The position numbers and the translations under genes are program-made. The notes beneath the pieces were generated by a model. It had not been told where the DNA came from. It was given only the letters and a program-made list of their open reading frames with translations, and ran no database searches. Shown here piece after piece: positions 7,182 through 63,231 of a DNA stretch of 64,000 bases. Position 1 is the stretch's first letter. Every line of letters starts with the position of its first letter. Origin of the DNA: Candidatus Buchananbacteria bacterium (GTDB lineage: Bacteria; Patescibacteriota; Patescibacteriia; 2-01-FULL-39-33; JBAYJR01); contig JBAYJR010000001.1 in assembly GCA_041665005.1 (NCBI GenBank), forward strand, positions 4,727 through 68,726. Direction: 5' to 3'.

Positions 7182-7478
7182 ATGTCAATGCACCAGCTAA
7201 AAGATTTATTGCAACGCTCCGTTAATCGAGCGGGAATTTCTAAAGAAGTGGAAGCTTCTTTGATTTGTGAAAAATTTTTGGAAGTGGTTAAAGAAACGTT
7301 TGGCGCGGCTTGGCAAAAAAATTGTAAGCCGCTTTATGTTAAAAATAATACGATTACGGTGGCTTGTTTAAACAACGTCGTGGCCCAAGAAATAAAATTA
7401 CGGGAAAAAGTTTTGCTGGCTAGTTTAGAAAAAATTTTAAAAAAGAAAAGCGTAGAAAGGATTAGGTTTGTAATTTAG
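7182..7478 (+). CDS. DUF721 (DciA-like) small protein
   Basis: About 98 aa with the typical W..NCKPLYVKNNTITVACLNNVVAQEIKL pattern of the DUF721 family. Confidence 0.5.
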   Translation: MSMHQLKDLLQRSVNRAGISKEVEASLICEKFLEVVKETFGAAWQKNCKPLYVKNNTITVACLNNVVAQEIKLREKVLLASLEKILKKKSVERIRFVI

Positions 7479-7493
7479 TAAAGAAGTCAAAAA

Positions 7494-7583
7494 GTGTAAA
7501 GTGTAAAGTGTAAAGTGTAAAGTGTAAAGTGTAAAGTGTAAAGTGTAAAGTGTAAAGTGTAAAGTGTAAAGTGTAAAGTGTAA
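7494..7583. repeat. Perfect heptanucleotide microsatellite (GTGTAAA)x about 12.7
   Basis: Read directly in the sequence, immediately upstream of the four-helix-bundle gene. Confidence 0.95.
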
Positions 7584-7588
7584 AAGTA

Positions 7589-7933
7589 ATGAGGATTGAA
7601 AAATTTGAAGATATTTATGCCTGGCAAAAGGGGAGACAACTAGTAATTGAAGTTTATCGGTTAACGGAGGATAGTCGGGATTATTCTTTTAGAGATCAAT
7701 TAAGGCGGGCCAGTATTTCTGTTATGAACAATATTGCCGAAGGCTTTGAACGAAATACTAATCAGGAATTTAAACATTTTTTGTACATTGCCAAAGGCTC
7801 GTGTGGTGAGGTAAGATCGATGTTGTATTTGACTTTAGAGTTTAATTATTTTACCACTGAGCAGTTTAATAAAGTGTATAGTTTGTCAGTCGAAATTTCT
7901 AGGTTACTGGCTGGTTTAATAAAATCCTTATAG
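7589..7933 (+). CDS. Four-helix-bundle protein of the 23S rRNA intervening-sequence protein family (PF05635/TIGR02436-like)
   Basis: Hallmark block FRDQLRRASISVMNNIAEGFERNTNQEFKHFLYIAKGSCGEVRSMLYL. Confidence 0.85.
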   Translation: MRIEKFEDIYAWQKGRQLVIEVYRLTEDSRDYSFRDQLRRASISVMNNIAEGFERNTNQEFKHFLYIAKGSCGEVRSMLYLTLEFNYFTTEQFNKVYSLSVEISRLLAGLIKSL

Positions 7934-8177: not shown

Positions 8178-8855
8178 TTAAAATTTGCGGTTAGTAGCTA
8201 AAGGTTTTTCGGTTAGTTTTTTTCTGTCGCTGATAATTTTATCCAGACCAACACACTGGATATTTTTTTGTTTCAACCAAGCTAGTAGGTCCGGCAAATA
8301 ATTCAAAGTTTCTGTTTGGTCGTGCAGTAAAATTATTGACGGCCAAGTCAGCTCGGCTAACTGGCTAGTAACACAAGCCAGGGCTTTTTCTGGTTTTTGC
8401 CAGTCGCGACTATCTACTTGCCAAGTAACTGTTTGATAGCCTAAGCGGTCAAGGGTTAGTTGGTTAGCCCCGTTATACCGACCAGCGGGCGGCCGGAAAT
8501 AAATTGGTTTGGTGCCAAAATATTCCTGGCAGAGTTTTTCGGTGGTGGTAATTTGACTAACTAATTGTTGGTCCGTTAGTTTGGTAATATTGGGGTGATC
8601 AAAAGTGTGGTTGCCGATCAGACAATTATTAGCTAATGCTTGTTGCAAAGCCGAATAATACTTAGGTAATTGTTCGCCGATAACAAAAAAGGTTACGGAA
8701 CAAGAATTTGCGGCCAAAGTTGAAACAATGGCCTGGGTATTAATTGTTGGCGCGTCATCAATTGTTATGGCTACTTCCGTTGGCCAGGCTAATAAAGCCT
8801 GGTTTGTTAATAAACTTAACCCCAAATAGAGCCCCAGTAGTGTTTTTTTGGTCAT
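8178..8855 (-). CDS. Polysaccharide deacetylase (NodB homology domain), secreted
   Basis: N-terminal signal peptide; TIDDAP and HTFDHP motifs of the NodB/CE4 family. Confidence 0.8.
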   Translation of the reverse strand: MTKKTLLGLYLGLSLLTNQALLAWPTEVAITIDDAPTINTQAIVSTLAANSCSVTFFVIGEQLPKYYSALQQALANNCLIGNHTFDHPNITKLTDQQLVSQITTTEKLCQEYFGTKPIYFRPPAGRYNGANQLTLDRLGYQTVTWQVDSRDWQKPEKALACVTSQLAELTWPSIILLHDQTETLNYLPDLLAWLKQKNIQCVGLDKIISDRKKLTEKPLATNRKF

Positions 8856-8983
8856 GATTTATCCCTCCTAAATAGTATTGAGCAGTTTAGCATATTCGGG
8901 GGTTTTAGCAAGGGGATGGAGTTTAAATATTGGTAATAAATAATTAATTTTGGCTTAAATAAGCCAATATATAAGAATGACAC

Positions 8984-9012
8984 TTGACAAGATTTTGAAT
9001 ATGTGATATACT
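8984..9012 (+). promoter_or_regulatory. Sigma70-like promoter, TTGACA-17-TGaTATACT (extended -10)
   Basis: TTGACA at 8984-8989, 17 nt spacer, TGATATACT at 9004-9012; no CDS follows, only a structured region. Confidence 0.5.
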
Positions 9013-9018
9013 GTAATA

Positions 9019-9225
9019 TTACGATAAGAAATCGTAATTAGCAGTTAAAATTGTTTTTTACAAAATTTAATCAAAATTCTCTGAGGAGAGAGTTTTTATT
9101 GTCATTGCGAGGCTGTTTGCCGTGGCGATCTTTAGCTAGTCTAAAGATTTGTTTCACCCCGTTTAAACGTGGCTTGCAATGACAAAATAAAAAACTCTCC
9201 ATTAGGTGAGTTTTTTTGTTTAATG
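9019..9225 (+). ncRNA. Candidate small RNA: 5' hairpin, then a long near-perfect stem of about 24 bp enclosing about 75 nt with internal hairpins, then a U-tract
   Basis: Hairpin attacgat-aagaa-atcgtaat at 9019-9040; arms GGAGAGAGTTTTTATTGTCATTGC (9076-9099) and GCAATGACAAAATAAAAAACTCTCC (9176-9201); inner hairpin atctttag-ctagt-ctaaagat; T7 tract at 9212-9218. Confidence 0.35.
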
Positions 9226-9440
9226 CTAGCCGCAGTGTTGTTGAGAATCAAGTTCTAAAACAGGGAGAAAAACACATTATGTTATATTAGAGCCCGAAAG
9301 TTTTTCATCAGGTATCCTCAATAACACCGTGGCCAGCCAGATTCATTAAACTGACCATTGGCTAATCGGCGACCAGACCCCAACCTGCCTATTGGTTTCC
9401 ATTTAAAGGCTGGAAAAACTTTGTTTTAAGTTTAAAAACT

Positions 9441-9520
9441 TAAAATGATAGCAGCCTCCTTCCTCTGAGGAGACAAGAATTTTTTCTTGGCTTCTCAGAG
9501 AAGGGACAAAAATTTGTTCC
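9441..9520 (+). repeat. Conserved 5' leader element, copy 1 (homologous to 10824-10895)
   Basis: cagcctccttcctctgaggagacaagaattttttcttggcttctcagagaagggacaaaaa aligns with cagccccccttttccaaggagacaaaaattatcttttggctttttagaaaagggataag; the small hairpin changes in a compensatory way (cttc/gaag versus ctttt/aaaag). Confidence 0.6.
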
Positions 9521-9547
9521 AGATTGATTTTTAGAAAGGAGAAAACT

Positions 9548-9721
9548 ATGTTTTCTTTTTGCTATTACGCGGTGTTAATCACCGCAATGTTCGCTCTTTT
9601 TTTTACGGCAGTATATAAAGGCTTAGTAAAAAAAGATTATCTCAAGTTTGGTATCTGTATGGGGTTGATGAATTTTTTCGGCCTCATCATCATGGTATCA
9701 AAGTGGATGCTAAACATATAG
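9548..9721 (+). CDS. Small hydrophobic membrane peptide (57 aa, two predicted TM helices)
   Basis: RBS AAAGGAG 8 nt before ATG at 9548 (MFSFCYYAVLITAMFALFF ...); the track's TTG start at 9524 is less likely. Confidence 0.5.
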   Translation: MFSFCYYAVLITAMFALFFTAVYKGLVKKDYLKFGICMGLMNFFGLIIMVSKWMLNI

Positions 9722-9735
9722 GTTTCTAAAGGTAT

Positions 9736-9770
9736 CCGAGAGAATACTAAGGTATAAATACCATCTCTCG
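9736..9770 (+). repeat. Conserved two-tier hairpin, copy 1 (CCGAGAGAAT-loop-ATCTCTCG), terminator-like
   Basis: Outer stem CGAGAGA/TCTCTCG, inner stem GGTA/TACC; copies 2 and 3 have the same architecture; followed by a T-rich tract. Confidence 0.6.
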
Positions 9771-10325
9771 TCTTCTTGAGGGTTGCAGAATATTTTCTGA
9801 AATTCTCCAGAAGCTTCCGCAGCCGCGGTTTGCGGACTGAGGAGGTTATTACACTATACATTAAAATTGAGGTTAGTCACTTTTGTGACGCTGACTGACT
9901 GGCGCTTTGTTCTTGGTCTTGGACTAAGGGTTTAGCGTTTAACCAGTTGGTGACTAAACCACCAAGGTCTTTGACCTTAAGAGGTTTGGTCTCGGCCAAG
10001 AGTTTTCTTGGCCGCCTCTACTTAAGGGTTGCAGATGATTATTTGAAACTCTCAAGTAGTTTTTTCACCAAGTAGGGTGGAAAAATAAAAAATAGACCTT
10101 TAAAATTTTGCAACTAAATTTTTGCTTAGGAGGCCAATTTTGACTGACGCTTCATTGGTGTAAAACTAAATGATGTCTAGGTTAAATTGGATTTGCCCAT
10201 AATTATTTGGGTCAGGAAGTTAAGTTTTAGAATAATATTACTATAATATTTTCTAGTTTTACTTAACTACAATCTTAAGCAAAAGTTTAGTTGCAAAAAT
10301 TATTTACTGTGAAGGAGGTGGAGAG

Positions 10326-10785
10326 CTTGAAGCTTGAAACCAGACCAAAACATTTTTTGGATTTTTTGCTATGGCCACTACTGCGAATTTTTTGGGAGCC
10401 ATTATCCCGGAAGAATTCCCACTGGTGGCACTGGTTAGACTATTACGGCAATGTTTTTTTGCCGTTAGAAATAAATCCGGTGCCGTCAAAAGAAATTCGT
10501 TATAGTTTTTGGCAGCGGTTTTACCTGACCAACTTCGGTTGGCGCAAAGTCGTCGTAGTTAAGCCAAAAGGCTACACGGGTGGCTATCGCCTGGGCTTTA
10601 TTTCCCAGACAGAGAAAAAGAAGCAGGTCTGCGCGGTCATTTTGTCAGGTCAGGCCGCGGCCTTAATCGGTGGCAGTAAAGTTCAGTTCTTTGCCATTGA
10701 TTATTATGGTAGGGAGATTCCCTTAGAATTGGTAGAGGTTACTTATAACAAAGCAACACTGCCAAAAGAAATCATTCTAGTTTAG
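10326..10785 (+). CDS. Hypothetical protein (about 153 aa from TTG; the track's ATG at 10291 gives 164 aa)
   Basis: A strong RBS, GAAGGAGGTGG, lies inside the track ORF 6 nt before TTG at 10326, which suggests the real start is the TTG. Confidence 0.4.
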
Positions 10786-10823
10786 TTAATGGGCTGGAAA
10801 TATTATTTAAGTTAAAATTTAAG

Positions 10824-10895
10824 TAATATCAGCCCCCCTTTTCCAAGGAGACAAAAATTATCTTTTGGCTTTTTAGAAAAGGGATAAGTAACATC
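10824..10895 (+). repeat. Conserved 5' leader element, copy 2
   Basis: See copy 1 at 9441-9520. Confidence 0.6.
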
Positions 10896-10924
10896 ATCCC
10901 TAATTGCTCATTGAGAGGTGAAAA

Positions 10925-11176
10925 ATGAAAAAAGAAGTTAAATTTTCATTATGTAAGACTTACTCCTTTTTAGGAGTGGTCTGGATTGGGATTATATTTT
11001 TAATAATCTGGGTGTTCGGTTTTGGGGAAACCAGATTGCCAATCAGTGTATCAACTATTTCCGACGGTACAGTTTTTATTATCTGTACCCTCGGGGCCAT
11101 CTATTTGGCCACTCTTTTTTTAGCAACAGCTTTGTTTTATTGCTTTAATCGCCAATGGCCCTGGCGGAAAAGTTAG
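10925..11176 (+). CDS. Small membrane protein (83 aa, two to three TM helices)
   Basis: RBS GAGAGGTG before the ATG; strongly hydrophobic; followed by conserved hairpin copy 2. Confidence 0.5.
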   Translation: MKKEVKFSLCKTYSFLGVVWIGIIFLIIWVFGFGETRLPISVSTISDGTVFIICTLGAIYLATLFLATALFYCFNRQWPWRKS

Positions 11177-11193
11177 GGTAAACAAAAGAGCAT

Positions 11194-11227
11194 CCGAGAG
11201 AATGCCTAGGTAAAATACCATCTCTCG
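11194..11227 (+). repeat. Conserved two-tier hairpin, copy 2
   Basis: ccgagagaatgcctaggtaaaataccatctctcg followed by ttttt. Confidence 0.6.
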
Positions 11228-11324
11228 TTTTTCCAAATTTATTATTAAAAAATAGTAAATTTAGAAAAATTCAGCACCAAATGGTGATGAATAAGTTATG
11301 CTTAAAAAGGAGATGGTTAATATG

Positions 11325-11549
11325 TTCGGAGGCATTAATGTTTTCCAGTCTAACACCTGTAAGGGTGTTTTGGTAAAATTGGCATATAAGTTAGTTTACA
11401 GAGGGCCATTTGCTGCGATGCCAACTTACCACACCGGAGTGTTTGTTCTTCCGGATGGAATTAATTTGGAACATGTCAATCTTAATCAGCACATACCCCA
11501 CAAGCCATACCAAAAGGTTGAGCTTGTGGAAGTATTAAGAGCTGACTGA
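11325..11549 (+). CDS. Small soluble hypothetical protein (about 75 aa)
   Basis: RBS AAGGAG 9 nt before ATG at 11325 (MFGGINVF ...); the track start at 11298 is less likely; followed by conserved hairpin copy 3. Confidence 0.4.
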   Translation, partial: FGGINVFQSNTCKGVLVKLAYKLVYRGPFAAMPTYHTGVFVLPDGINLEHVNLNQHIPHKPYQKVELVEVLRAD

Positions 11550-11566
11550 TTAGGCTATTAGTGTAT

Positions 11567-11601
11567 CTGAGAGAATACTAAGGTATAAATACCATCTCTC
11601 G
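11567..11601 (+). repeat. Conserved two-tier hairpin, copy 3
   Basis: ctgagagaatactaaggtataaataccatctctcg; the closing base pair changes C-G to U-G. Confidence 0.6.
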
Positions 11602-11690
11602 TTTTCCTAAGTTTTGCAGAATTGAAAAATTTAGGAAACTGGTTAAAGAAATTTGACCAGTAGAAATAAAATTTAAAGGAGGCAAGTAGA

Positions 11691-12068
11691 ATGAATAAAG
11701 AGACGAAAGAGATGTGCAAAACGGTAGTTATTTTTTTGTTACTTGTGGGGGTTGTGGTAGGTATTTTCGACCATTATATGTCGAAAACTTCTCAAGCGAA
11801 AAAAGAAGCCGAACTAAAGGCCCGGTGGGAGCATCAATACAACACAGACATGCAGGCCCGCGACCGGATTAAACCAGTCGCGAATGGCTGGGAGTATAAT
11901 GGTAAAATTGAAAACGATGAACAGCTTTCGGTTGCTTGGTCTGAAATTAACAAACAATTACACCAATCCCGGTTTGGTCTCACTCCAGATGAGGATCCGT
12001 TTGAACTGCGGCTCATTGTCCGCGTTAATCCAGCGGACATCATCTCTCCGGCGCCAAGACGTAAGTAG
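11691..12068 (+). CDS. Hypothetical protein with an N-terminal TM helix
   Basis: RBS AAGGAGG; intrinsic terminator at 12087-12116 (ggggttat-ttaa-tataacccc plus ttctttct). Confidence 0.5.
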   Translation: MNKETKEMCKTVVIFLLLVGVVVGIFDHYMSKTSQAKKEAELKARWEHQYNTDMQARDRIKPVANGWEYNGKIENDEQLSVAWSEINKQLHQSRFGLTPDEDPFELRLIVRVNPADIISPAPRRK

Positions 12069-12303
12069 CTTTGCCGGCTAGTCTTAGGGGTTATTTAATA
12101 TAACCCCTTCTTTCTAAGGGCACCACGATTGGTGATGCTTTGAGAAAGGAAAATATTTAAATAAAATATTTATTTAAGCTAGAGGTTAATCATGCTACGC
12201 GGAAGATTATGATGAAAAACTAAAAAAATAATTTTAAACCGAGTTTTTAGAAATAAAAATACCACTTTAGTTAGTTGTTCACAAGTTAACTCTTGACAAA
12301 GAC

Positions 12304-12332
12304 TTGAGAATAGCTAACTGCGGTGATATACT
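12304..12332 (+). promoter_or_regulatory. Sigma70-like promoter, TTGAGA-17-TGaTATACT; same extended -10 as the promoter at 8984
   Basis: TTGAGA at 12304-12309, extended -10 at 12324-12332; an upstream TTGACA at 12293 would give a 28 nt spacer and is rejected. Confidence 0.45.
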
Positions 12333-12339
12333 ACTGCGG

Positions 12340-12477
12340 TAGAGAAGACGCGATATTATTGGTTGGCTCAAAATCAACCTCGTCACGCCTAGCGTGACAA
12401 AATCTCTCTCCTCGGTAGATTTCTGACTAACCAATTTGCCCTTCTTGAACACCCCCGCTTCGGCTGGGGTGTTTTTA
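12340..12477 (+). ncRNA. Candidate small RNA (about 135 nt) ending in a strong intrinsic terminator
   Basis: Long-range pairing attggttgg / ccaaccaat-like, internal perfect hairpin gtcacgc-cta-gcgtgac, terminator cacccccgc-ttcg-gctggggtg plus TTTTTATT (12450-12477); no ORF; does not match SRP, tmRNA or RNase P motifs that I can recognise. Confidence 0.35.
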
Positions 12478-12539
12478 TTGCGCTAAAATTGTTATAATAA
12501 AGTTGTTTAGACAGTAACTAATTATCTTTAGTAAAATTT

Positions 12540-12920
12540 ATGTCTTTAAAAAGTTTATTAGCTACCTTGTGGGCCTGTACTTTGTTGTTGTGGTTAACTT
12601 GGAGCCTGGTCTTATTTAAGATTGATCCGATAGAAGGCGGATTTTTGGCAATTAGTTTTTTTTATAGCAGTTTAGTTTTAGCTTTATTGGGAACTTTTGT
12701 CCTAGCGGGTTATTATTTGCGACGTTATCGTCAGCCCGAAGCATTGCCTTACCGATTAGTGGTAATTTCTTTACGTCAGGGCTGGTGGTTTAGCTTGGTA
12801 GTGTTAATTACTTTAATTTTGCAAAGTCAAAATTGGTTAACTTGGTGGAATGTCGCGTTATTAATTTTAGCCCTAGGAATTTTGGAATTTTTCTTTATTT
12901 CTTTCAAGGGAGAAAATTAA
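12540..12920 (+). CDS. Hypothetical integral membrane protein (four TM helices)
   Basis: Hydrophobic profile; -10 TATAAT at about 12492. Confidence 0.5.
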   Translation: MSLKSLLATLWACTLLLWLTWSLVLFKIDPIEGGFLAISFFYSSLVLALLGTFVLAGYYLRRYRQPEALPYRLVVISLRQGWWFSLVVLITLILQSQNWLTWWNVALLILALGILEFFFISFKGEN

Positions 12921-16868: not shown

Positions 16869-18050
16869 ATGTCTCAGCTCAAAGATAATTGCCAAGAACT
16901 TACCAACCTGCTTTTGGAACTTAAAAACCTTAAGTCGGAGTTTGATTTGGCTTATCAAGAAGCTTTGGTTAGTCGTGACCTGACTAAACTCAGGGGGTTA
17001 AAGATGCAAATTGAGAGCGAGGTAAGTAAATTAGAGGTTAAGGCCGATCCTTTTAATGTCGCCTTTGAAGTAGATTTGAGAAAAAAATTAGCTGAACAAA
17101 GTAATTTAGATTTTGTTGGTGCTTTCCATGAGGGCTGGGCTTTGGTTAAAAATGGTGTAGAATATTTTTATATAGATCGGACTGGCAAGGAAATTGGTCC
17201 GGTCATGTTTAGTCCTGTTAGGTATGATTATGCTCAAAATTTTTCAAACGGTTTGGCTTGGGTTGTAATAAGTGGAAAATATTTTTATATTGATTACACA
17301 GGCAAAGAAATTAGCGTTGAAAGATACGACGATGCTACTGACTTTAAGGAAGGCTTGGCGGGTGTTAAAAGAGGCAAAGAATGGTTTTTTATCAATCCTG
17401 CTGGTCAAGCAATTAATTTAGAAAGATATGATGATGTCGGCAACTTTTCTGAAGGCTTGGCTCGAGTTATAAAAAAACACACCCAGTGGTTTTATATTAA
17501 TCACGCTGGTCAAGAAATTAGCGCCGAAAGATACGATGGTGCTGAGGATTTTCATGAAGGCTTAGCTCGAGTTAGAAAAGATAACAAGTGGTTCTATATT
17601 AATCGAGTTGGTTCAGAATTAGTCTTGAAGGACTATGATTTTGTTGGTGATTTTGTTGGTGGCTTGGCCGTGGCCCGAAAGGATAAGAAATATTTATACA
17701 TTGATCACTCGGGTAAGGAAATTATTTCAGCCAAGTATAACGCGGCCGGTGGTTTTGTAGAAGGCTTGGCTTGGGTTAGGGAAGGCGAAAAATATTATTT
17801 TATTGATCGTACTGGTCAAGAAATTAGTGCCGAAAGATATGATCGTGTTGGCAACTTTTCGGAAGGCTTGGCTTTGGTTAGGGAAGACAATAAATATTAT
17901 TTTATTGATCGTGCTGGTCGAGCAATCAATCCCGAAAAATATGATTTTGCCGAAAATTTTTCAGAAGGCTTGGCTCGGGTTACAAAAGATGGCAAGTGGT
18001 TTTATATTGACCATGCCGGCCGCAAAATATTTGAGGGGGAATTGCCTTAA
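16869..18050 (+). CDS. Paralog A1: conserved N-terminal CxELT..LKxLKxEFDL module plus about nine WG-like beta-propeller repeats
   Basis: Repeats of the form [KE][WY]F[YF]I[DN]xxGxEIxxERYDxAxxFSEGLARV resemble the KWG / WG-containing repeat (PF14903); the N-terminal 60 aa are shared with A2, A3 and the B family. Confidence 0.6.
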   Translation: MSQLKDNCQELTNLLLELKNLKSEFDLAYQEALVSRDLTKLRGLKMQIESEVSKLEVKADPFNVAFEVDLRKKLAEQSNLDFVGAFHEGWALVKNGVEYFYIDRTGKEIGPVMFSPVRYDYAQNFSNGLAWVVISGKYFYIDYTGKEISVERYDDATDFKEGLAGVKRGKEWFFINPAGQAINLERYDDVGNFSEGLARVIKKHTQWFYINHAGQEISAERYDGAEDFHEGLARVRKDNKWFYINRVGSELVLKDYDFVGDFVGGLAVARKDKKYLYIDHSGKEIISAKYNAAGGFVEGLAWVREGEKYYFIDRTGQEISAERYDRVGNFSEGLALVREDNKYYFIDRAGRAINPEKYDFAENFSEGLARVTKDGKWFYIDHAGRKIFEGELP

Positions 18051-18053
18051 TCT

Positions 18054-19220
18054 ATGTCTAATCCGGGATACAATTGCCAAGAACTTACTAACCTACTTTC
18101 GGCACTAAAAAACCTTAAGTCTGATTTTAATCTGGCTTATCAAGAAATCTTGGTTAGCCATGATTTAAGTCTAGCTAGAGCGCTTAAAATAAAAGTTAAA
18201 GAAAAGGTTAATAGTTTAGAGGCAAGAACTAATCCTTTTAATATCGCCTTTGAAGTAGATTTGAGAAAAAACTTAGCTGAACAAAATAATTTAGATTTTG
18301 TTGGTGCTTTTCATGGGGGCTGGGCTAAGGTTAAAAAAGATGGAAAATATTTTTTTATTGATAAAACCGGCAAGGAGCTTAGTTCAGAAAGATATGAGAG
18401 TGTTGGTAATTTTTCGGAAGGCTTGGCTTGGGTAAGAGATTCCAGAGGGTCTATTTATATTGATCGGACGGGCCAAGAAATTAGTTTAAAAAGATATAAT
18501 GTAGCGGGTGATTTTCATGAAGGTTTAGCTAGGGTTTTTGATACTGGGGACCATTTTTTTATTAATCGTGCCGGTCAAGAAATTAGTTCCGAAAGGTATG
18601 ATTTAGCTAATAATTTTTCGGAAGGCTTTGCGGGCGTTAAACAAGCTGGAAAAATGTTTTTTGTTGACCATGCAGGTAAAAAGCTTAATTTTAAGGAAGA
18701 TTATAAAGAGGTTTGTGATTTTTCTGAAGGTTTAGCCCGAGTTTCTAAAGATAAGGTGATGTTTTTTATTGACTATACAGGTCAAAGAGGCGTCACAACG
18801 ACTTATGATAACGCTAGTAGTTTTGTTGGTGGCTTGGCTTGGGTTGAAAAAGATGGAGAAGTTTTTTATATTAATTATGCTGGTGAGAAAGTTATTTCAG
18901 TAAAATATGATTTTGCTGATGATTTTCACGAAGGTTTGGCCCGGGTAGAAAAAGATGGTAAGTGGTCTTTTATTGATCGCACCGGCCAAGAGATTAATGC
19001 TGAAAAATATGATTTTGCTTCTAATTTTTCAGAAGGTTTAGTCCGGGTTGTAAGAAATAAGGAGTGGTTTTATGTTGACCGTGCTGGTCAAGAAATTAGT
19101 GCCGAAAGATATGCCTTTGCCGAAAATTTTTCTGAAGGTTTGGCACGAGTCCAAGAACAAGAATATGGAGAATATTCTTATATCGACCATACTGGTCGTA
19201 AGATATTTGATGAGAAATAA
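18054..19220 (+). CDS. Paralog A2: same architecture as A1
   Basis: MSNPGYNCQELTNLLSALKNLKSDFNLAYQE ... followed by WG-like repeats; 3 nt gap from A1. Confidence 0.6.
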   Translation: MSNPGYNCQELTNLLSALKNLKSDFNLAYQEILVSHDLSLARALKIKVKEKVNSLEARTNPFNIAFEVDLRKNLAEQNNLDFVGAFHGGWAKVKKDGKYFFIDKTGKELSSERYESVGNFSEGLAWVRDSRGSIYIDRTGQEISLKRYNVAGDFHEGLARVFDTGDHFFINRAGQEISSERYDLANNFSEGFAGVKQAGKMFFVDHAGKKLNFKEDYKEVCDFSEGLARVSKDKVMFFIDYTGQRGVTTTYDNASSFVGGLAWVEKDGEVFYINYAGEKVISVKYDFADDFHEGLARVEKDGKWSFIDRTGQEINAEKYDFASNFSEGLVRVVRNKEWFYVDRAGQEISAERYAFAENFSEGLARVQEQEYGEYSYIDHTGRKIFDEK

Positions 19221-19229
19221 CTTTTATCT

Positions 19230-20390
19230 ATGCCCAATCCCAAACCCAACTGTCAGGAACTTACTAACTTACTTTTGGCACTAAAAAATCTTAAGCCTGA
19301 GTTTGATTTGGCCTATCAAGAAGCCTTAATTAGCCGCGATTTGACTAAACTTAGGGGATTAAAAATACAAATTGAGAGTAAGGTAAAAGAATTGGAGGCC
19401 AAGCTTGACCCTTATAACATTGAACTACGAAAGAAATTAGCCGAAGAAAATGACTTTGATTTTGTTGGTAATTTTCATGACGGCTGGGCAAAAGTCAAAC
19501 AGTGTGGAGAATGGTTTTATGTTGATTGCTCTGGGCAACGAATTAACTCGAAAGAATACGACATTGCCTGTGATTTTTCAGAAGGCTTGGCTTCGGTTTG
19601 TAAAGATCATCAATGGTTTTATATTGATTGTGCCGGCCAAGCAATTAATTTCGAAAAATATGATGTTGCCGATAATTTTTCGGAAGGCTTAGCTTGGGTT
19701 AGAAAACAGAATACCTTTTTTTATATTAATAAGATTGGTCAGGCAATTAATACTGAAACTTATAGCAACGTTAGCCGTTTTCGGGGAGGCTTGGCTCATG
19801 TGAAAAAAACTGGAAAAAATTTGCTTATTGAAGATTTGCTTATTGATAGAACCGGTAAAGAGATAAGTTTAGGAAAATATGATATGGTTGGTGATTTTTC
19901 GGAAGGCTTGGTAAGAGTTTATTGTAAAGATCAGGGATGGTTTTATGTTGACCGCATGGGTCAAGAAATTAGTGCCGAAAGATATGATGGTGCGGAGGAT
20001 TTTCATGAAGGCTTGGCTCAAGTTAAAAGACAGGGGCAGTGGTTTTACATTAACCAGTCTGGGCGAGCAGTTAATCAAGAAACATATGATTTTGCTTCTA
20101 ATTTTTCGGAAGGTCTGACCCGGGTTATGAAAAATAGAAAAATGTTCTATATTGATCACGAGGGTCAAACAGTTAATCAAGAAACATATGATGAGGCTAG
20201 AGATTTCTCGGAAGGCTTGGCTCCAGTTAGAAAAGATGATAAGTGGTTTTATATTGATCGCGCTTGCCAAGCAATTAATTCTGAAAAATATAATATTGCC
20301 TTAAATTTTTGTGGAGGATTGGCATTAGTTACAAAAGCCGGAGAACGGTTTTATATTGACCACACTGGTCGCAAAATATTTAAGGATTAA
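19230..20390 (+). CDS. Paralog A3: same architecture as A1
   Basis: MPNPKPNCQELTNLLLALKNLKPEFDLAYQE ... followed by WG-like repeats; 9 nt gap from A2. Confidence 0.6.
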   Translation: MPNPKPNCQELTNLLLALKNLKPEFDLAYQEALISRDLTKLRGLKIQIESKVKELEAKLDPYNIELRKKLAEENDFDFVGNFHDGWAKVKQCGEWFYVDCSGQRINSKEYDIACDFSEGLASVCKDHQWFYIDCAGQAINFEKYDVADNFSEGLAWVRKQNTFFYINKIGQAINTETYSNVSRFRGGLAHVKKTGKNLLIEDLLIDRTGKEISLGKYDMVGDFSEGLVRVYCKDQGWFYVDRMGQEISAERYDGAEDFHEGLAQVKRQGQWFYINQSGRAVNQETYDFASNFSEGLTRVMKNRKMFYIDHEGQTVNQETYDEARDFSEGLAPVRKDDKWFYIDRACQAINSEKYNIALNFCGGLALVTKAGERFYIDHTGRKIFKD

Positions 20391-50878: not shown

Positions 50879-51736
50879 ATGAGTATTAATAGTGAGTTGA
50901 TTAAAAGATTTGCACTTTTTGCTATAGCGCCAGTTTTGCTAGTATTATTTCCAATCATAGTTACTTTCTATATTTTTAATTTTCCCGTGATGCTTTTGGA
51001 GGAGACCTCAGGTCTTTTAAGGGTTAATACAAAACAATTAGAGTTTGTAAAAAATGATTTTTTATCTAAAGGTAATATCTTAAATGTTTTATCAAAGAGT
51101 AATATTGTAAGTGAATCTATGCCCTACAATCTTTATGTTTACGTTAGTAAATCTGGAATAGCTAGTGTTCACGACGGTAGCGTTGTTGAATGCGGTTATG
51201 ATGGTGTAACTACTACCCCAGTATACTCAAAAGAAAAAATACTTTCAAGGAATATTAGAATTAAGGATATTGATAAAGTCGCTGAAAAAATTTGGTGTTC
51301 TAGTACTTATACTTGTCGTTCAATGTTTTGTGATTGGGGGGGTGTGCAAAATCTACCCTCGGCATCCTCTAGTAATTATTTTTCACTATCAACATCAACA
51401 TATCAAATATATTTGAACGCGAGTTCTACGGGTCGTCTCGCTGAATTATTCGGGTCAGTGACATCCTCTTCGGATCATTTTTTTTGGTCGACATCAACAT
51501 ATCAAATAGATTTGAATGCGAGTTCTACGAGTTGGTGGAGTGGGCGTGATAATTATAAAACTATTTCTGACAATAACAAGCAAAAAATAAAAGTTATACT
51601 TAGACCATCTTCTTTATTTGCATGGGTGCTAGTTTATTTATTGAGCGTGTTAATAAATTTGGCTATTTTGAAGTTAATCAAGGAAGTAACTTACATAATC
51701 AAGATTGGTATTGTTAAATACATAATAAAAGAGTAA
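50879..51736 (+). CDS. Hypothetical membrane protein with internal STSTYQI(Y/D)LNASST repeats; visibly lower GC than the flanks
   Basis: N- and C-terminal TM helices; the repeat appears twice; codon composition is AT-skewed relative to the neighbours. Confidence 0.45.
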   Translation: MSINSELIKRFALFAIAPVLLVLFPIIVTFYIFNFPVMLLEETSGLLRVNTKQLEFVKNDFLSKGNILNVLSKSNIVSESMPYNLYVYVSKSGIASVHDGSVVECGYDGVTTTPVYSKEKILSRNIRIKDIDKVAEKIWCSSTYTCRSMFCDWGGVQNLPSASSSNYFSLSTSTYQIYLNASSTGRLAELFGSVTSSSDHFFWSTSTYQIDLNASSTSWWSGRDNYKTISDNNKQKIKVILRPSSLFAWVLVYLLSVLINLAILKLIKEVTYIIKIGIVKYIIKE

Positions 51737-51752
51737 TATTTATTTTAATTTT

Positions 51753-51824
51753 GCCGCCATCGTCTAGTGGTTAGGACGCTAGGTTCTCATCCTGGTAACA
51801 GGGGTTCGATTCCCCTTGGCGGTA
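51753..51824 (+). tRNA. tRNA-Glu (anticodon CUC)
   Basis: Manual cloverleaf: acceptor GCCGCCA/TGGCGGT, D-arm GTCT/GGAC, anticodon stem CTAGG/CCTGG with loop TTCTCAT, T-arm AGGGG-TTCGATT-CCCCT, discriminator A; no encoded CCA. Confidence 0.85.
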
Positions 51825-51907
51825 CAATATATTTATAGTGTTAAGAGGTATAATCTGTTTATTGGTTAAATAAATTAAAAATCATGTGCATCAAAGGAGG
51901 TGCGATT

Positions 51908-55207: not shown

Positions 55208-55567
55208 CCGGATTAATTAATTTTGTCACTATTACTCCAGAAGTGATTACTTCTCAGCAGAACATTCTCCTTATTATTTCTTGTTCTTTTGGCAGCAAAA
55301 GAACCAAAACTGCTGGGTGACAAATTCACTAGTTGCTACTTAGGATATGTAGTGAATTAATCCTTGACGTTCAATTGTCACCCAGACCCAGGGTGGTTCT
55401 GCCCGCGTTAAATATAAATAATAATAAAAACACCCAATAGAACTTAGATTGGTTGTCGGACTAAGGATGGTTATCTGGGGTTTAGGTCGGTTGTAAAAAG
55501 TATGGGTTTTTGTTAAGATAGACAAAGCTTAACTGCTAAACATCAGTCAAATTTTTATAGTATTTAT

Positions 55568-56635
55568 ATGCCCCAACTTTGCCCCGAACTCACTACCAAA
55601 CTAGCCCCCCTCAAACAACTCAAACAAGAGTTTGATTTGGAATTAACCAAAGCTCAGAGTTTAAGTCCTAATAAACCAGAGGATTTAGTTTTGGTTAGGG
55701 AGGCTAAGATTAAATTAGAACAAGCCTCTCAAGCTTTTCAAGATCTCCAAAACGAACTCTGGTTAGAAACCCCCGAACTAACCCCAGAAAACCTTAAAGC
55801 CCAGTATGAAGCCCAAGTAGACATTCTCCGTAAAAACAACCTCCTAAAAACCCTCTCCACTGGCGAATTAGGTATTGAAGCAATTGATAAGCGGGAATAC
55901 CCCATACCAACTCTAGAACAAATAGAGTTTTTTATCTTAAAAAATAAAGAATTTTTGAAAACCAAAATTCCACAAGGCTTTGTTAAACTAATTATTGTTC
56001 CCTTTGGCTTGCCAATTAGTTCCCTAATAGAGGCTTATAGCAAGGCCTTAATCGAATGCCACAAACAAGGCTGTTTATATGATGCCCAATTCCTACATTT
56101 TGAGTTTAATGCAAAACCTATCCATGATTATACCGGATGGGTCAAAGCCGAAGCCACAGGAGAGCTAGTATATTTCCCCAAAGAATACTCAAAAACTACT
56201 CATCAAGGTAAAACTAAGCAAGAACTTTTACCTACTCAAGCTTGGCAAATTCTAATGCTTGAAGACTCGCCCGATATTCCAGATAAAGGCAAGGGCAAAA
56301 CCGTTAATGGTCGTCAGCAACCAGAAGCTAACCAATCACCCAATGACTATCTTAAACAACTCCAAACCAACCTTCAGTATAAAGGCGAACAAGGCTTAAC
56401 CCCAGAATCCTGGCTAGTTTATGGTTTAGATTATTTAAAAGAAGGACGCCAAATAATTGATAGCCGGCAAGATTACTATAGAGGCTGTATTATGGTTAAT
56501 AGTTATTTTAAAGAAACTGGTTATGTGCCGACAGCCTACCCTGGCCATGGCGATATGTCGGTCACTTTGGATCGGAAGAGCCCGAACGATTCCTGGACTA
56601 TCGGTGCCACCCGCTTTGCAGTAAGTATTCTTTAA
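55568..56635 (+). CDS. Paralog B1: conserved N-terminal MPQLCPELTTKL ... EFDLELTK module plus an unknown C-terminal domain of about 300 aa
   Basis: N-terminus homologous to A1-A3; C-terminal domain shared with B3 and B4 at high nucleotide identity. Confidence 0.6.
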   Translation: MPQLCPELTTKLAPLKQLKQEFDLELTKAQSLSPNKPEDLVLVREAKIKLEQASQAFQDLQNELWLETPELTPENLKAQYEAQVDILRKNNLLKTLSTGELGIEAIDKREYPIPTLEQIEFFILKNKEFLKTKIPQGFVKLIIVPFGLPISSLIEAYSKALIECHKQGCLYDAQFLHFEFNAKPIHDYTGWVKAEATGELVYFPKEYSKTTHQGKTKQELLPTQAWQILMLEDSPDIPDKGKGKTVNGRQQPEANQSPNDYLKQLQTNLQYKGEQGLTPESWLVYGLDYLKEGRQIIDSRQDYYRGCIMVNSYFKETGYVPTAYPGHGDMSVTLDRKSPNDSWTIGATRFAVSIL

Positions 56636-56645
56636 ATAAATTTGT

Positions 56646-57833
56646 ATGCCCCAACTTTGCCCCGAACTTACAACCAAGCTAGCCTCCCTCAAACAACTCA
56701 AAGCAGAGTTTGATTTGGAATTAACCAAAATTAAAAATTTAGATTCTAAAAAATCAGATGATTTAGTTTTGGTTAGGCAAATAAAAAATCAATTGGAGTC
56801 GACCTTGAAAAGTATCCAAGAAATTATGGTAACAGTTGATTGGAAAGATTTTTATTACAGAGAACTAACTTCTGTAGAAAACAAAAATAATTATCATGAA
56901 GAGCAGGTTCTTGAAGGAAACGGTAATGGAGTGTTAGCTTTGCAGGTTTTACATGGTGGACTACGGTTGGTTTCTGGTGGCGGCGATGGTACTATTAAGC
57001 TTTGGGAGTGGGAGCTAAATCTTCCTAGTCGGTATAAAGAGAAGCAAACTTTTTCGGAGCGTTACTCAGTTTCAGCCCTGCAGGTTTTACCTGATGGTAA
57101 TATTGTTTCGGCCGCTAGTAATGGGACTATGAAGATTTGGGATCGGAATATTTATGGTTTGGTTGAAACTTCGCAGATTATTAGAGAACATATGCAGGGT
57201 TATGTACAAACACTTAAGGTTTTTCCTAGTGGTCGAATTGTTGCCGGGATTAGTAATGGTGGTATTGAAATTTGGGATAAAGACAGTCAGGGTCAATATT
57301 ATCAGGCCCAGGGTATTGCCGGGTCGGGAGGTCATGTGCTGACCTTGCAAACTTTACCGGACGGTCAGATCTTTTTTAGCAATGGTAAAATCAATATTTT
57401 GCATCAGGACAGTTGGAATCAGTATGATAGATTACAAGAAATTGATAACCAAGATCTCTTCACTCTGGTTTTGCAAGTCTTGCCCGATGGTCGGATCGTT
57501 TCGGGCACTCTGCAAGGCGACATTCAAATATGGGATCAAGATGCCAAAGGTAAATACCAATTAACTCAATCTTTTTTTGGTCACAGAAATTCTGTACGAG
57601 ATTTGCAAGTCTTGCCCGATGGTCGGATTGTTTCTGGTGGCGGGGATTACACGGTTAAAATTTGGGAACAAGACCAAGCGGGTATTTATCGTAACATTGA
57701 AACACTTTCTAGTGCTAAGGTTACCAATGACCACGGATCGGTCTATACTTTGCAGGTTTTGGCTGATGGTCGGATTTTTGCGGGTTATGGTAATAATAAT
57801 GTTATAATCTGGGATGGTGATAAGGTAAAATAA
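56646..57833 (+). CDS. Paralog B2: same N-terminal module fused to a WD40-type beta-propeller
   Basis: Repeats GDGTIKLWEW, SNGTMKIWD, GGIEIWDKD, GDIQIWDQD, GGDYTVKIWEQD and LQVLPDGRIVSG. Confidence 0.65.
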   Translation: MPQLCPELTTKLASLKQLKAEFDLELTKIKNLDSKKSDDLVLVRQIKNQLESTLKSIQEIMVTVDWKDFYYRELTSVENKNNYHEEQVLEGNGNGVLALQVLHGGLRLVSGGGDGTIKLWEWELNLPSRYKEKQTFSERYSVSALQVLPDGNIVSAASNGTMKIWDRNIYGLVETSQIIREHMQGYVQTLKVFPSGRIVAGISNGGIEIWDKDSQGQYYQAQGIAGSGGHVLTLQTLPDGQIFFSNGKINILHQDSWNQYDRLQEIDNQDLFTLVLQVLPDGRIVSGTLQGDIQIWDQDAKGKYQLTQSFFGHRNSVRDLQVLPDGRIVSGGGDYTVKIWEQDQAGIYRNIETLSSAKVTNDHGSVYTLQVLADGRIFAGYGNNNVIIWDGDKVK

Positions 57834-57843
57834 ATAAATTTAT

Positions 57844-58926
57844 ATGCCCAGACTTTGTCCCAAACTTACAACTAAACTAGAATCCACCAAAGCGCTTAAA
57901 AAAGAGTTTGATTTGGAATTTACTAAAATTAGAAATCTAAACTCTAAAAAATCCGAGGATCTTATTTTCATCAGAGACATTAAATCCAACCTGAACCAAA
58001 CCCTCCAAGACCTCCAAAACCAACTCTGGCTAGAAACCCCCGAATTAACCCGAGAAAACCTTAAAGCCCAATATGAATTTCAGAAAAACCTTCTTATTAA
58101 GGCTGGCTTAGCAAAACCTCTCTCCACTGGTGAATTAGGTATTGAAGCAATCGATAACAAAGAATACCCCATACCCACCCTAGAACAGATTGAAGAAATG
58201 ATGCTAGAAAAACGTAAGTTATTAGAAACCAAAATCCCACAAGGCTTTGTTAAGTTAGTTCTTGTTCCTTTCGGCTTGCCAATTAGCTCCCTAATAGAGG
58301 CTTATGACAAGGCCCTAACGGAATATCATCAGCGAGGTGAGCTCCTAGACACCCAAAATAAACCTTTGGGGCTTGATAAAGAGATTGGTAAAAAGTTTAT
58401 TTATGATAATGGTGCTAAATATTATATCCAAGCCGAAGCCACGGGAGATTTAGTATATTTCCCTCAAGAATACTCCAAAATTACTCATCAAGGTAAAACC
58501 AAAAAACAACTCCTAGCCACCCAAGCCTGGCAAGTCCTACTACTTGAAGACTTGCCCGACCTTCCAGATCAAGGTCAAGGTAAAATCATAGCTAAACGCC
58601 AGCAACCAGAAGCTAACCAAATACCCAAGAAGTATCTTAGACAACTCCAGACCGACCCTCAGTATAAAGGTGAACAAGGTTTAACTCCAGAATCCTGGCT
58701 AGTTTATGGCTTAAGTCACTTAGTGCAAAGTAAACAAATGATTGAGAGCGGGGAAAGAGAATATGGTTATAGGGGTTGTTATTTACTTGATAGTTGTTTT
58801 AAAAAATCTGGTGACGTGCTGTACGCCTATTTATATCGTAGCGATGCGCGGGTCAGCTTGGTTCGGAGTGCTCCGGATAGTCACAATACCTACGGTGCCG
58901 GTCGGTTTTCGGTGAGTATTTCTTGA
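57844..58926 (+). CDS. Paralog B3: same architecture as B1
   Basis: MPRLCPKLTTKL ... then ETPELTRENLKAQYE ... GFVKLVLVPFGLPISSLIEAY. Confidence 0.6.
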   Translation: MPRLCPKLTTKLESTKALKKEFDLEFTKIRNLNSKKSEDLIFIRDIKSNLNQTLQDLQNQLWLETPELTRENLKAQYEFQKNLLIKAGLAKPLSTGELGIEAIDNKEYPIPTLEQIEEMMLEKRKLLETKIPQGFVKLVLVPFGLPISSLIEAYDKALTEYHQRGELLDTQNKPLGLDKEIGKKFIYDNGAKYYIQAEATGDLVYFPQEYSKITHQGKTKKQLLATQAWQVLLLEDLPDLPDQGQGKIIAKRQQPEANQIPKKYLRQLQTDPQYKGEQGLTPESWLVYGLSHLVQSKQMIESGEREYGYRGCYLLDSCFKKSGDVLYAYLYRSDARVSLVRSAPDSHNTYGAGRFSVSIS

Positions 58927-58959
58927 TCTTTGTTTTTAGTTAATAATTAGTTCCAGCTA

Positions 58960-58989
58960 TTGACAATAATTAATTTGCTTGCTATAATA
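58960..58989 (+). promoter_or_regulatory. Promoter TTGACA-18-TATAAT
   Basis: Consensus hexamers; followed immediately by a hairpin plus T-tract in the 5' UTR. Confidence 0.55.
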
Positions 58990-59000
58990 TTTTCACTTTA

Positions 59001-59024
59001 AAAGCCTGTAGGCTTTTTTATTTT
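59001..59024 (+). terminator. Leader hairpin plus U-tract (attenuator-like) between the promoter and the RBS of the small peptide gene
   Basis: aaagcc-tgta-ggcttt followed by tttatttt. Confidence 0.5.
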
Positions 59025-59042
59025 ACCAAGGAGGTAAACAAA

Positions 59043-59183
59043 TTGATTAAAAACAATCAAACAACAGGGGATGGTAAGCAGGATAAGGCAAACAGCTGTC
59101 AGAGGCATTTTGAGTACCAAATGCCCGATGGCAGTATTATCTGCTATCATTGTGGGGAAGCCTTAATAAAGGCTAAACCCTAA
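59043..59183 (+). CDS. Small Cys/His peptide (46 aa; LIKNNQTTGDGKQDKANSCQRHFEYQMPDGSIICYHCGEALIKAKP)
   Basis: Strong RBS AAGGAGG 8 nt before TTG; below the track size cutoff; terminator at 59198-59228. Confidence 0.4.
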   Translation: MIKNNQTTGDGKQDKANSCQRHFEYQMPDGSIICYHCGEALIKAKP

Positions 59184-59294
59184 ATTTTCCCCGAATCACC
59201 GGCGTTAATATTTAATGCCGGTTTTTTATTTGACAAAGAGTCTTGGCCAATGTTATACTAAATATGATAAATCATACTAATCATATTAAACCAT

Positions 59295-59576
59295 ATGAAC
59301 AAAAAAATCAGCGGACACCTTGATGCCCAGTGCTATGGTGTGACCACCTTGGGCGAGCGGGGACAAATTGTTATTCCTAACGAATTGCGCCAAGCTTTGC
59401 GTTTGCGAAGTGGTGATAAACTGCTAGTATTTAGTCGTTTTGATAAACTAATTGCTTTGGTTAAAGCCACAGAGTTGGAAAGTTTTTTAAATTATATGAT
59501 GAAAAAGTTTGGCCCAAAAATCATCCCAGCCCAGTATCGTTCGCATTTAGCCAAGGCTAAAACTAAGAAAAAATAA
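59295..59576 (+). CDS. AbrB/MazE/SpoVT-family DNA-binding protein
   Basis: Swapped-hairpin motif VTTLGERGQIVIPNELRQALRLRSGDKLLVF; promoter TTGACA-18-TATACT at 59232. Confidence 0.65.
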   Translation: MNKKISGHLDAQCYGVTTLGERGQIVIPNELRQALRLRSGDKLLVFSRFDKLIALVKATELESFLNYMMKKFGPKIIPAQYRSHLAKAKTKKK

Positions 59577-59639
59577 CTGGCCAAATTGGGCTAAAAGTGC
59601 TATAGTAATTAAATAATATTATAATTTTTAATAAAATTT

Positions 59640-61217: not shown

Positions 61218-61226
61218 ATTGGTTTT

Positions 61227-61952
61227 ATGGATAAGCAAACAATCATAAAAATAGTTGATTTGTGTAAGGATTATGTTAATGAGGGAGTGGTTACCGATGT
61301 TTTACACGGCATTACTTTTGAAATTAAAGCTGGTGAATTTGTGGCGATTATGGGGCCGTCGGGTTCTGGTAAATCTACTTTAATGCATATTTTAGGATTT
61401 CTAGATTCGCCGACTACCGGTGAATATTATTTTGATGGTGATGACGTAAAAAAATTAACGGATGAAGAAATGGCTAAGGTGAGAAATCAGAAAATTGGGT
61501 TTATTTTTCAACAGTTTAATTTGTTACCCAAAACCTCGGTTTACGACAATGTTAAATTGCCGCTGCTATATGGCAAGTATACTGATATTGATGGACGAGT
61601 CAAAAAGGCGATTACGGCCGTTGGTTTGGAACATCGGTTAAATTATTTATCCAACCAATTATCGGGCGGAGAAAAACAGCGAGTAGCCATTGCTCGATCT
61701 TTAGTGACTGATCCCAAAGTAATTTTTGCGGATGAACCGACAGGCAACCTTGACTCTAAATCCGGCAAACAGATTATGAATATTTTAAACCAGTTAAACG
61801 AAGAGGGCCACACTATCATTTTGGTAACGCACGAAACTTATACCGCCGAACATGCTAAGCGTATTTTAAAAATTAAAGACGGTTTGATGGTGGAAGACAG
61901 ATTAGTAGATGAACAAACGAGAAAAAATGCTTTGGCGGGTATTTTGAAATAG
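61227..61952 (+). CDS. ABC transporter ATP-binding protein (MacB/LolD/FtsE-like)
   Basis: Walker [10 protein letters not shown], signature [15 protein letters not shown], Walker [12 protein letters not shown]. Confidence 0.9.
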
Positions 61953-61966
61953 TAATAATTGTTTTT

Positions 61967-63211: not shown

Positions 63212-63231
63212 ATTATTTTTAATAAATTTAT

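Follow-up and report, generated by a model that had tools for sequence, protein, structure and literature searches.

Why should genes that bear no resemblance to one another stand between copies of the same folded RNA elements? This question is raised by a stretch of about 3.7 kb in the chromosome of Candidatus Buchananbacteria (Patescibacteria), in which small unrelated genes are separated by repeated folded elements of two classes, one lying 5' of the genes (the A/C hairpins) and one lying 3' (hairpin B). It lies within a 64-kb stretch of DNA, called the window below, to which all statements about the window refer. The array is bounded at about 9408 and 12150, and all six of its units lie on the + strand. 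Our reading of the sequence is that A/C and B may be cis-acting elements of the sense-strand mRNA which make each open reading frame (ORF) a modular unit and which also supply homology for shuffling, as promoter-early stem-loops (PeSLs) do, and we put the probability of this reading somewhat below one half, at about 45%.

The similarity within the array belongs to the non-coding modules, which are 70-97% identical to one another while the ORFs between them are unrelated. Comparison of A1 with A2 gives z = 11.8, of B1C1 with B3C3 z = 11.7 and of B1 with B2 z = 8.9, against a background of z -2.5 to 1.3 for the ORFs, for the 60 nt before B and for the 100 nt before A. B1 agrees with B3 at 39/40 positions even though one follows a peptide with two transmembrane (TM) segments and the other a soluble protein. 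The A1/A2 homology begins at GGCTGGAAA (9408 and 10792) and runs to the start codons, covering 140 and 133 nt (9408-9547 and 10792-10924) at 70% identity; homologous leaders had been predicted from the sequence beforehand, and they proved longer than claimed. The same original prediction had spoken of duplicated expression cassettes. The organisation is indeed cassette-like, but only the non-coding flanks are homologous and the ORFs are not.

The modules also stand at fixed distances from the genes (Table 1). The first 3' hairpin starts 15, 18, 18 and 17 nt past the stop codons of p57, p83, p75 and p125, and from the A/C hairpin to the start codon there are 41-52 nt for four of the five genes (p57, p83, p75 and p125). 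The U-rich 3' flank of each B doubles as the 5' arm of the next A/C hairpin. After p125 the position of B is held by an ordinary terminator hairpin, T4, and between C1 and C2 there is an orphan Shine-Dalgarno (SD) sequence, which we read as what is left of a decayed unit. The extent of the array as first described needs amending: the units named there are present, but p152, which lies inside the range given, had been left out, as had p125 and the decayed unit.

Pairing is preserved by compensatory change in the A/C hairpins. In hairpin C (C1, C2 and C3), 7 of 18 pairs have changed on both sides, 96% of cells are paired and none of 500 shuffles is as good; in hairpin A, 3 of 19 pairs have changed on both sides and 97% are paired, a comparison of two sequences only, for which 62 of 500 shuffles are equally good. 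The motif TTGCAGAAT, which had been listed as a further repeat, does recur exactly on the + strand at 9783 and 11614, but taken alone it does not exceed chance when one mismatch is allowed (31 found, 25 expected); it is part of this third repeated hairpin, C. When folded singly, the seven A/C hairpins consist of three stems, outer (5-8 bp), middle (6-7 bp) and inner (2-6 bp), separated by 1x1 mismatches and coming to 15-21 bp in total, with the exception of C2', in which the middle and inner stems are continuous over 12 bp. The A and C models match each other's members at E ~0.25 (filters off), and because of these cross-matches and the common three-segment architecture we treat A and C as one class with seven copies. 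This comparison is one of individual folds, since MAFFT followed by RNAalifold on all seven misaligned the arms and gave no consensus. The z values of the individual folds lie between -2.3 and -3.5. In five of the seven hairpins the + strand is more stable by 3-5 kcal/mol, the other two being about equal, and G-U pairs number 14 on the + strand against 6 on the - strand; this asymmetry favours a structure of the sense-strand RNA.

Hairpin B is present in exactly three copies in the window, with 0 matches in shuffles, and the claim that the same two-tier hairpin follows each of the three small ORFs was borne out, the stems lying 15-18 nt past the stop codons. A covariance model built from the three copies (R1) scores them at 70-77 bits and its next match in the window at 12 bits. 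Compensatory changes between the B copies, which had also been claimed, were not found: none of 11 pairs has changed on both sides, a single C-G pair having become a U-G wobble, and changes of this kind occur instead in C (7/18) and A (3/19). The other four differences, all in B2 as compared with B1, sit among the 12 unpaired of the 34 core positions (p ~0.01 by our own arithmetic), a pattern that gives modest evidence for conserved stems. B is conserved in its loops as well as in its stems and has no clear strand preference, and inspection for a K-turn found no tandem G-A motif. Viewed as a terminator, it has a stem of 7 bp with 4 G-C pairs enclosing about 20 nt, with the tails UCUUCUU, UUUUUCC and UUUUCCU.

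With filters off, the window contains two strong copies of A, three strong and two weaker copies of C and three copies of B, all within 9.4-12.2 kb and none elsewhere in the 64 kb. Rfam at gathering thresholds matched only a tRNA; at E <= 5 over 8800-12600 nothing fell on B, and the only overlap with A/C was a chance match of mir-5615 over A1 (E 3.7, 18.9 bits against a gathering threshold of 82 bits).

Table 1. Features of the array in order of position in the window; the unit to which each is assigned is numbered from the 5' end.
Feature	Position	Strand	Unit	Description
A1 module	9408-9547	+	1	AT-rich stretch, three-segment hairpin (9457-9506, 21 bp, -29 kcal/mol), short second hairpin, SD AAGGAG; ends at p57 ATG
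p57	9548-9721	+	1	57 aa, two TM-like segments; SD AAGGAG, stop TAG; 90%-identity cluster has one member
B1	9737-9770	+	1	Two tiers: 7-bp outer stem CGAGAGA/TCTCTCG, inner GGTA/TACC; 15 nt past p57 stop
C1	9770-9814	+	2	A/C class, 18 bp; abuts B1 directly; contains GGTTGCAGAAT
Orphan SD	9839-9846	+	2	GAGGAGG, some 25 nt past C1; followed by neither a start codon nor an ORF; no 3' hairpin; unit read as decayed
C2	10018-10059	+	3	A/C class, 17 bp; T run after; no B copy before
Inverted repeat	10103-10301	+	3	29 nt, 90% complementary, around 141 nt; ends just upstream of p152 SD; region folds with z = -6.7
p152	10327-10785	+	3	152 aa, soluble; SD AAGGAGGT, TTG start, stop TAG; conserved uncharacterised family; no 3' hairpin
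A2 module	10792-10924	+	4	A1 homologue, from 7 nt past p152 stop to p83 ATG; hairpin 10836-10883, 19 bp
p83	10925-11176	+	4	83 aa, two TM-like segments; SD GAGGTGA, stop TAG
B2	11195-11227	+	4	18 nt past p83 stop
C2'	11227-11270	+	5	A/C architecture, 19 bp, AT-rich, without TTGCAGAAT; directly after B2; weak C-model match (E = 0.03)
p75	11322-11549	+	5	75 aa, soluble; SD AAGGAG, stop TGA
B3	11568-11601	+	5	18 nt past p75 stop; equals B1 at 39/40 positions
C3	11603-11638	+	6	A/C class, 15 bp; many compensatory changes relative to C1 and C2
p125	11691-12068	+	6	125 aa, one N-terminal TM segment; SD AAGGAGG, stop TAG; single-member cluster (exact look-up)
T4	12086-12108	+	6	Canonical terminator-like hairpin, 9 bp and T-rich tail; 17 nt past p125 stop; holds B's position
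C4	12108-12150	+	array end	A/C architecture, 17 bp; after p125 terminator; weak matches to C (E = 0.05) and A (E = 0.09) models; followed by about 390 nt, then p126

The genes within these flanks are set apart from the rest of the window by their translation signals. A strong SD precedes all five, as compared with 8 of 53 genes elsewhere in the window (hypergeometric p ~3e-4, again our own arithmetic), and their stop codons are TAG in four cases and TGA in one, with no TAA, as compared with 42 TAA (79%), 9 TAG and 2 TGA outside (p = 0.004 for at least four TAG). These atypical signals suggest that the array was acquired from outside, or that it is evolving or being expressed under a different regime. 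Codon scores in the island range from -0.20 to 0.28 per codon, the in-frame mean being 0.46, and even the clearly real p152 scores only 0.07. The GC content of the island is not distinctive. Across the window as a whole only about 8-10 of the 53 ORFs of at least 100 aa have an SD, and upstream regions are mostly AT-rich.

The three small ORFs of 57, 83 and 75 aa with strong SD sequences were confirmed as predicted, p57 and p83 having two TM-like segments each and p75 none, and all three were called by an independent gene caller too. Among 5.8 billion proteins, p83 and p75 have no relatives but themselves, and the single-sequence AlphaFold2 model of p75 is mostly beta (predicted local distance difference test score, pLDDT, 68). 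The fifth protein, p125, is listed at NCBI as MFA6427930.1, a hypothetical protein from a metagenome-assembled genome of Candidatus Buchananbacteria. Searches of Pfam, NCBIfam, PHROGs and PADLOC gave no family with a meaningful score for any island protein. The family to which p152 belongs consists of proteins of about 150 aa from Patescibacteria, in 134 clusters at 50% identity, in which K-x-S-H-W-W-H-W and N-F-G-W are nearly invariant and for which there is no Pfam family; the AlphaFold2 model of p152 is a confident beta-sandwich with no close match in the PDB. The hidden Markov model of the family found no p152-like pseudogene upstream of A1.

If A/C and B act on the sense-strand mRNA, the A/C hairpin could be an intercistronic processing site or a 5' stabiliser, processing being proposed because the stem length fits a substrate of the RNase III type, and B could be a terminator, an attenuator or a 3'-end hairpin that protects against exonucleases. 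Between them they would make each unrelated ORF a self-contained expression unit. The modules are probably also homology patches, given that they have kept their similarity while the ORFs have none, and recombination between them could have allowed units to be copied, swapped and lost. We infer in this way a function at the RNA level, in processing or termination, as well as recombination between modules.

The comparison with PeSLs rests on several shared features. A PeSL is a conserved composite element of about 100 bp that extends from stop codon to ATG in T4-like phages (PMC2839356, PMC4122927); PeSLs border orphan genes in hyperplastic regions, and they have been shown to recombine with one another (PMC2839356, PMC4122927). 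The array likewise combines an AT-rich stretch, a stem-loop and an SD, within a plastic region its modules stand beside small genes that are database orphans, and only the modules are homologous; A2, which fills the space from 7 nt past the p152 stop to the p83 ATG, has a stem-loop with 3 compensatory pairs. It differs from PeSLs in lying on a bacterial chromosome rather than in a phage, in having two classes of element (5' A/C and 3' B), in having no sigma-70-like promoter that could be detected in its modules and in showing no sequence similarity to them. Because no such promoter was detected in the modules, the setting is a bacterial chromosome and the array is known from a single genotype, the resemblance is a functional one only. 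In the early region of phage T7, RNase III sites lie between the genes of polycistronic mRNAs. With intercistronic RNase III or stabiliser hairpins of that type the array shares a series of irregular hairpins that resemble one another, measure about 20 bp and separate successive small genes on the same strand, and the A/C hairpins are more stable in the sense orientation; the sequences, however, are unrelated, and cleavage at A/C is putative. The most fitting description of the system is a new variant, restricted to one lineage, of modular regulatory cassettes.

Several observations weigh against reading the elements as modular mRNA signals of this kind. Neither A nor C was found to contain a sigma-70-like promoter, so that a defining component of a PeSL is missing; a scan called no promoter-like site in A1, in A2 or in any C hairpin, and inspection by eye turned up nothing but poorly spaced hexamers. 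A single operon may span the array, with transcription from a promoter-like site at 8984-9012. B is unlike a textbook terminator, with its short stem around a long interior and tails of 4-5 U, and it was not called by the terminator scan, although the same scan did call T4 (12086-12108). Each element is represented by 2-3 copies from one organism and two samples that are 100% identical, and with so few copies from a single organism the covariation statistics are weak. Coding support is weakest for p57, whose codon score of -0.20 is no better than that of one alternative frame, and p57, p83 and p75, unlike p125, are without an NCBI accession.

Much of the array could in principle have come about by ordinary local duplication and drift, in which case the hairpins would be plain terminators or untranslated-region structures that were carried along and had no role in shuffling. 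The elements occur in a single lineage only, B has no pair changed on both sides, hairpin A is matched by 62 of 500 shuffles on its two sequences, and the hairpin in B's slot after p125 is an unrelated ordinary terminator. Absence of the elements from related genomes and lack of homologues for small ORFs, both of which we found (the latter for p83 and p75), had also been named in the original prediction as grounds for its refutation and as signs of ordinary intergenic drift. Duplication of a unit would, however, copy its ORF, and here the similarity stops sharply at the module edges beside ORFs that are unrelated, membrane proteins in some units and soluble ones in others; the pairing of C has been kept through 7 double changes that 0 of 500 shuffles equal; and B1 is the same as B3 at 39/40 positions next to unrelated genes. 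Covariation, fixed geometry and sharp homology boundaries are our reasons for not accepting ordinary drift, which we regard as unlikely while still a serious contender. Selfish dispersed repeats that have accumulated in an intergenic-rich region, of the repetitive extragenic palindromic (REP), BOX or miniature inverted-repeat transposable element (MITE) type, would also be modular, palindromic, intergenic and stably folding, and at 10103-10301 a 29-nt inverted repeat that brackets 141 nt is MITE-like; that repeat could be either a MITE-like insertion or a long-range stem of the 5' untranslated region. BOX elements and REP elements or bacterial interspersed mosaic elements (BIMEs) are composites of hairpin modules that can affect the stability of neighbouring mRNA, and they are found genome-wide in tens to hundreds of copies. 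The copies described here differ in being all in one 3.7-kb island, with no copy in the remaining 60 kb of the window or in 1.39 Mb of related genomes, and in standing at fixed distances from the start and stop codons of the ORFs, which leaves selfish repeats as the least probable of the accounts considered.

Two further explanations assign the elements to known kinds of locus. In a type I toxin-antitoxin system, to which the small membrane peptides had originally been likened, p57 and p83 would be membrane toxins whose translation is controlled by leader A together with an antisense or trans-acting small RNA. Both are small and have two hydrophobic segments each, and the array has small hydrophobic ORFs, long structured 5' leaders and tandem copies in common with hok/sok, ldr/rdl, zor/orz and tisB/istR; two small-RNA-like units with promoter and terminator flank the array (~9020-9222 and 12339-12478) and are 79% complementary to each other over 24 nt. 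Toxins of type I usually take the form of a small hydrophobic peptide of less than 60 aa with one TM helix, a size that p83 exceeds, and each of the two membrane proteins has a second TM segment. No family match was obtained, the sequence scan identified no antisense RNA unit in the array, and the SD lies outside the A hairpin. In the proposed check for antisense promoters, the number of promoter-like sites did not exceed that in shuffles (13 against 8.7 +/- 3.0), and every minus-strand site was weak, at 9 of 12. The same A/C and B elements, moreover, flank the soluble p75, p125 and the conserved p152, and we judge the toxin idea improbable and unsupported. A cassette system acting at the DNA level, with the hairpins as recombination sites (attC-like, or for another site-specific or HUH-type enzyme) and the ORFs as mobile cassettes, appears to us more doubtful again. 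In its favour, the array shares with integron attC cassettes a series of co-oriented, largely orphan small ORFs that each precede a conserved imperfect palindrome; p83 and p75 are without relatives, the B loops are conserved as a protein-binding site would be, and the gene signals look foreign. Integron attC sites, however, span 57-141 nt and B spans 34 nt; a regular expression for the R''/R' pair (RYYYAAC...GTTRRRY, 40-130 nt apart) found none on either strand of 8856-12540; and the gene tables for about 4.9-21 kb of the window list no integrase, transposase, relaxase or recombinase domains. The G-U asymmetry of A/C points to sense-strand RNA instead, and no relatives turned up in plasmid, phage or viral collections.

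The array appears to be confined to one organism. The window matches an 80.7-kb metagenome contig in the European Nucleotide Archive (ENA) and short Logan contigs of SRR6484324; there is 100% identity between the Logan and ENA assemblies, and exact-protein look-ups recover one genotype from two samples. The Logan contigs break inside B1 and B3. The nearest genomes at the species level, which are Patescibacteria and mostly Buchananbacteria-like, have PheS identities of 65% or less. In about 40 related genomes the synteny of p126 and PheS is kept, and a tblastn search of 80 related loci anchored on PheS, with every island protein as query, found no island gene near PheS, p126 alone being conserved. 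The covariance-model search of relatives that had been proposed gave nothing: neither the exact patterns nor the models R1-R3 produced anything significant on 1.39 Mb of related loci, and blastn of the non-coding segments against these loci returned AT-rich noise only. The patterns for hairpin B and leader A had 0 matches in the viral collection, nor did the p152 profile find any there; blastn and tblastn against phages and plasmids gave no match, and the island proteins have no phage counterpart. In JGI metagenomes the B pattern gave one chance match inside an unrelated ORF, a result limited by the incompleteness of the collection for this purpose, as the scan missed the organism's own JGI contig. 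The array is thus lineage-specific, known from one organism, and a local curiosity.

A broader proposal would be that Patescibacteria carry a previously undescribed cassette system without an integrase, in which orphan small genes are gained, lost and reordered as units bounded by hairpins (A/C 5', B 3') that also provide expression signals, a chromosomal counterpart of PeSL shuffling or of the logic of attC. We consider this a long shot. The genomes of Patescibacteria are tiny and tightly packed, and regulatory RNAs and gene acquisition are almost unexplored in them. A local set of structured elements around unrelated small genes would give a handle on mRNA processing and termination and on the shuffling of orphan genes in this group, and the small membrane proteins among the orphan genes might matter for a host-attached life. 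For now the array is a well-described local oddity and not a general principle.

The regions on either side of the array contain candidate small RNAs. At 8984-9012 there is a near-consensus promoter, TTGACA-17-TATACT with a TG (11 of 12), which is the only near-consensus site on the + strand upstream of the array. The approximately 200 nt that follow it (~9020-9222) are highly structured (z = -6.6), end in a terminator at ~9190-9221 and include a hairpin, UUCUCUGAGGAGAGAG, similar to the base of hairpin A. Rfam gave no credible match to 8984-9222; there were only overlapping sub-threshold matches to Phe_leader, at 26-28 bits against a threshold of 55 bits, which rest mainly on one terminator-like hairpin that both overlap. 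This region may encode a small RNA, or it may be a leader or attenuator for the whole array. The second candidate, at 12304-12480 between the array and p126, has a promoter-like TTGAGA-17-TATACT with a TG (12304-12332) and a terminator at 12453-12478. Its positions 12399-12422 are complementary to 9074-9097 of the first candidate (79% over 24 nt), and in related genomes nothing similar to it turned up in front of p126. When the two candidates were screened for duplexes with the gene leaders, the whole-length duplexes obtained were uninformative, and only the pairing of the two candidates with each other stands out (z = -2.9).

Other interpretations of the hairpins were tried and rejected. B is in frame with all three upstream ORFs, which would permit stop-codon recoding stimulated by the hairpin, but such agreement has a chance of 1 in 9; readthrough into B would add 10-11 residues for two of the genes, and p75 meets another stop after 3 codons. 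A leader peptide in A, or a coding leader of the type found with ribosomally synthesised and post-translationally modified peptides (RiPPs), was ruled out by stop codons between A and the ORFs. A diversity-generating retroelement was considered in connection with an Avd-like 23S_rRNA_IVP protein encoded 1.6 kb upstream, but the differences between A1 and A2 are mostly transitions and are not adenine-specific, no repeat of template/variable type was seen, and the gene tables contain no reverse transcriptase.

The array is flanked by housekeeping genes, with an AddA-like helicase-nuclease, DciA, the 23S_rRNA_IVP protein and a polysaccharide deacetylase upstream and p126, PheS, PheT and DnaE downstream. 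At 7477-7591 some 14 tandem copies of a heptanucleotide, (GTGTAAA)n, reach the ATG of the 23S_rRNA_IVP-family gene (7589), and slippage in this repeat could cause phase variation of the expression of that gene. Further along, 16869-20390 holds three tandem paralogues of 393, 388 and 386 aa that consist almost wholly of 102-nt (34-aa) repeats with a recurring F-x-E-G-L-A motif and have no Pfam hit on record. At 55560-64000 there is another cluster of paralogous genes, which have segments of 150-300 nt in common at 70-84% identity and internal repeats of about 130-390 nt ending in ...WD-like motifs. Within the 3' end of an annotated 285-aa gene (50879-51736), a 71-nt segment is tandemly duplicated at 51363-51532, its copies being 80% identical and 99 nt apart; tRNA-Glu (51753-51825), the only tRNA gene in the window, lies about 220 nt downstream.

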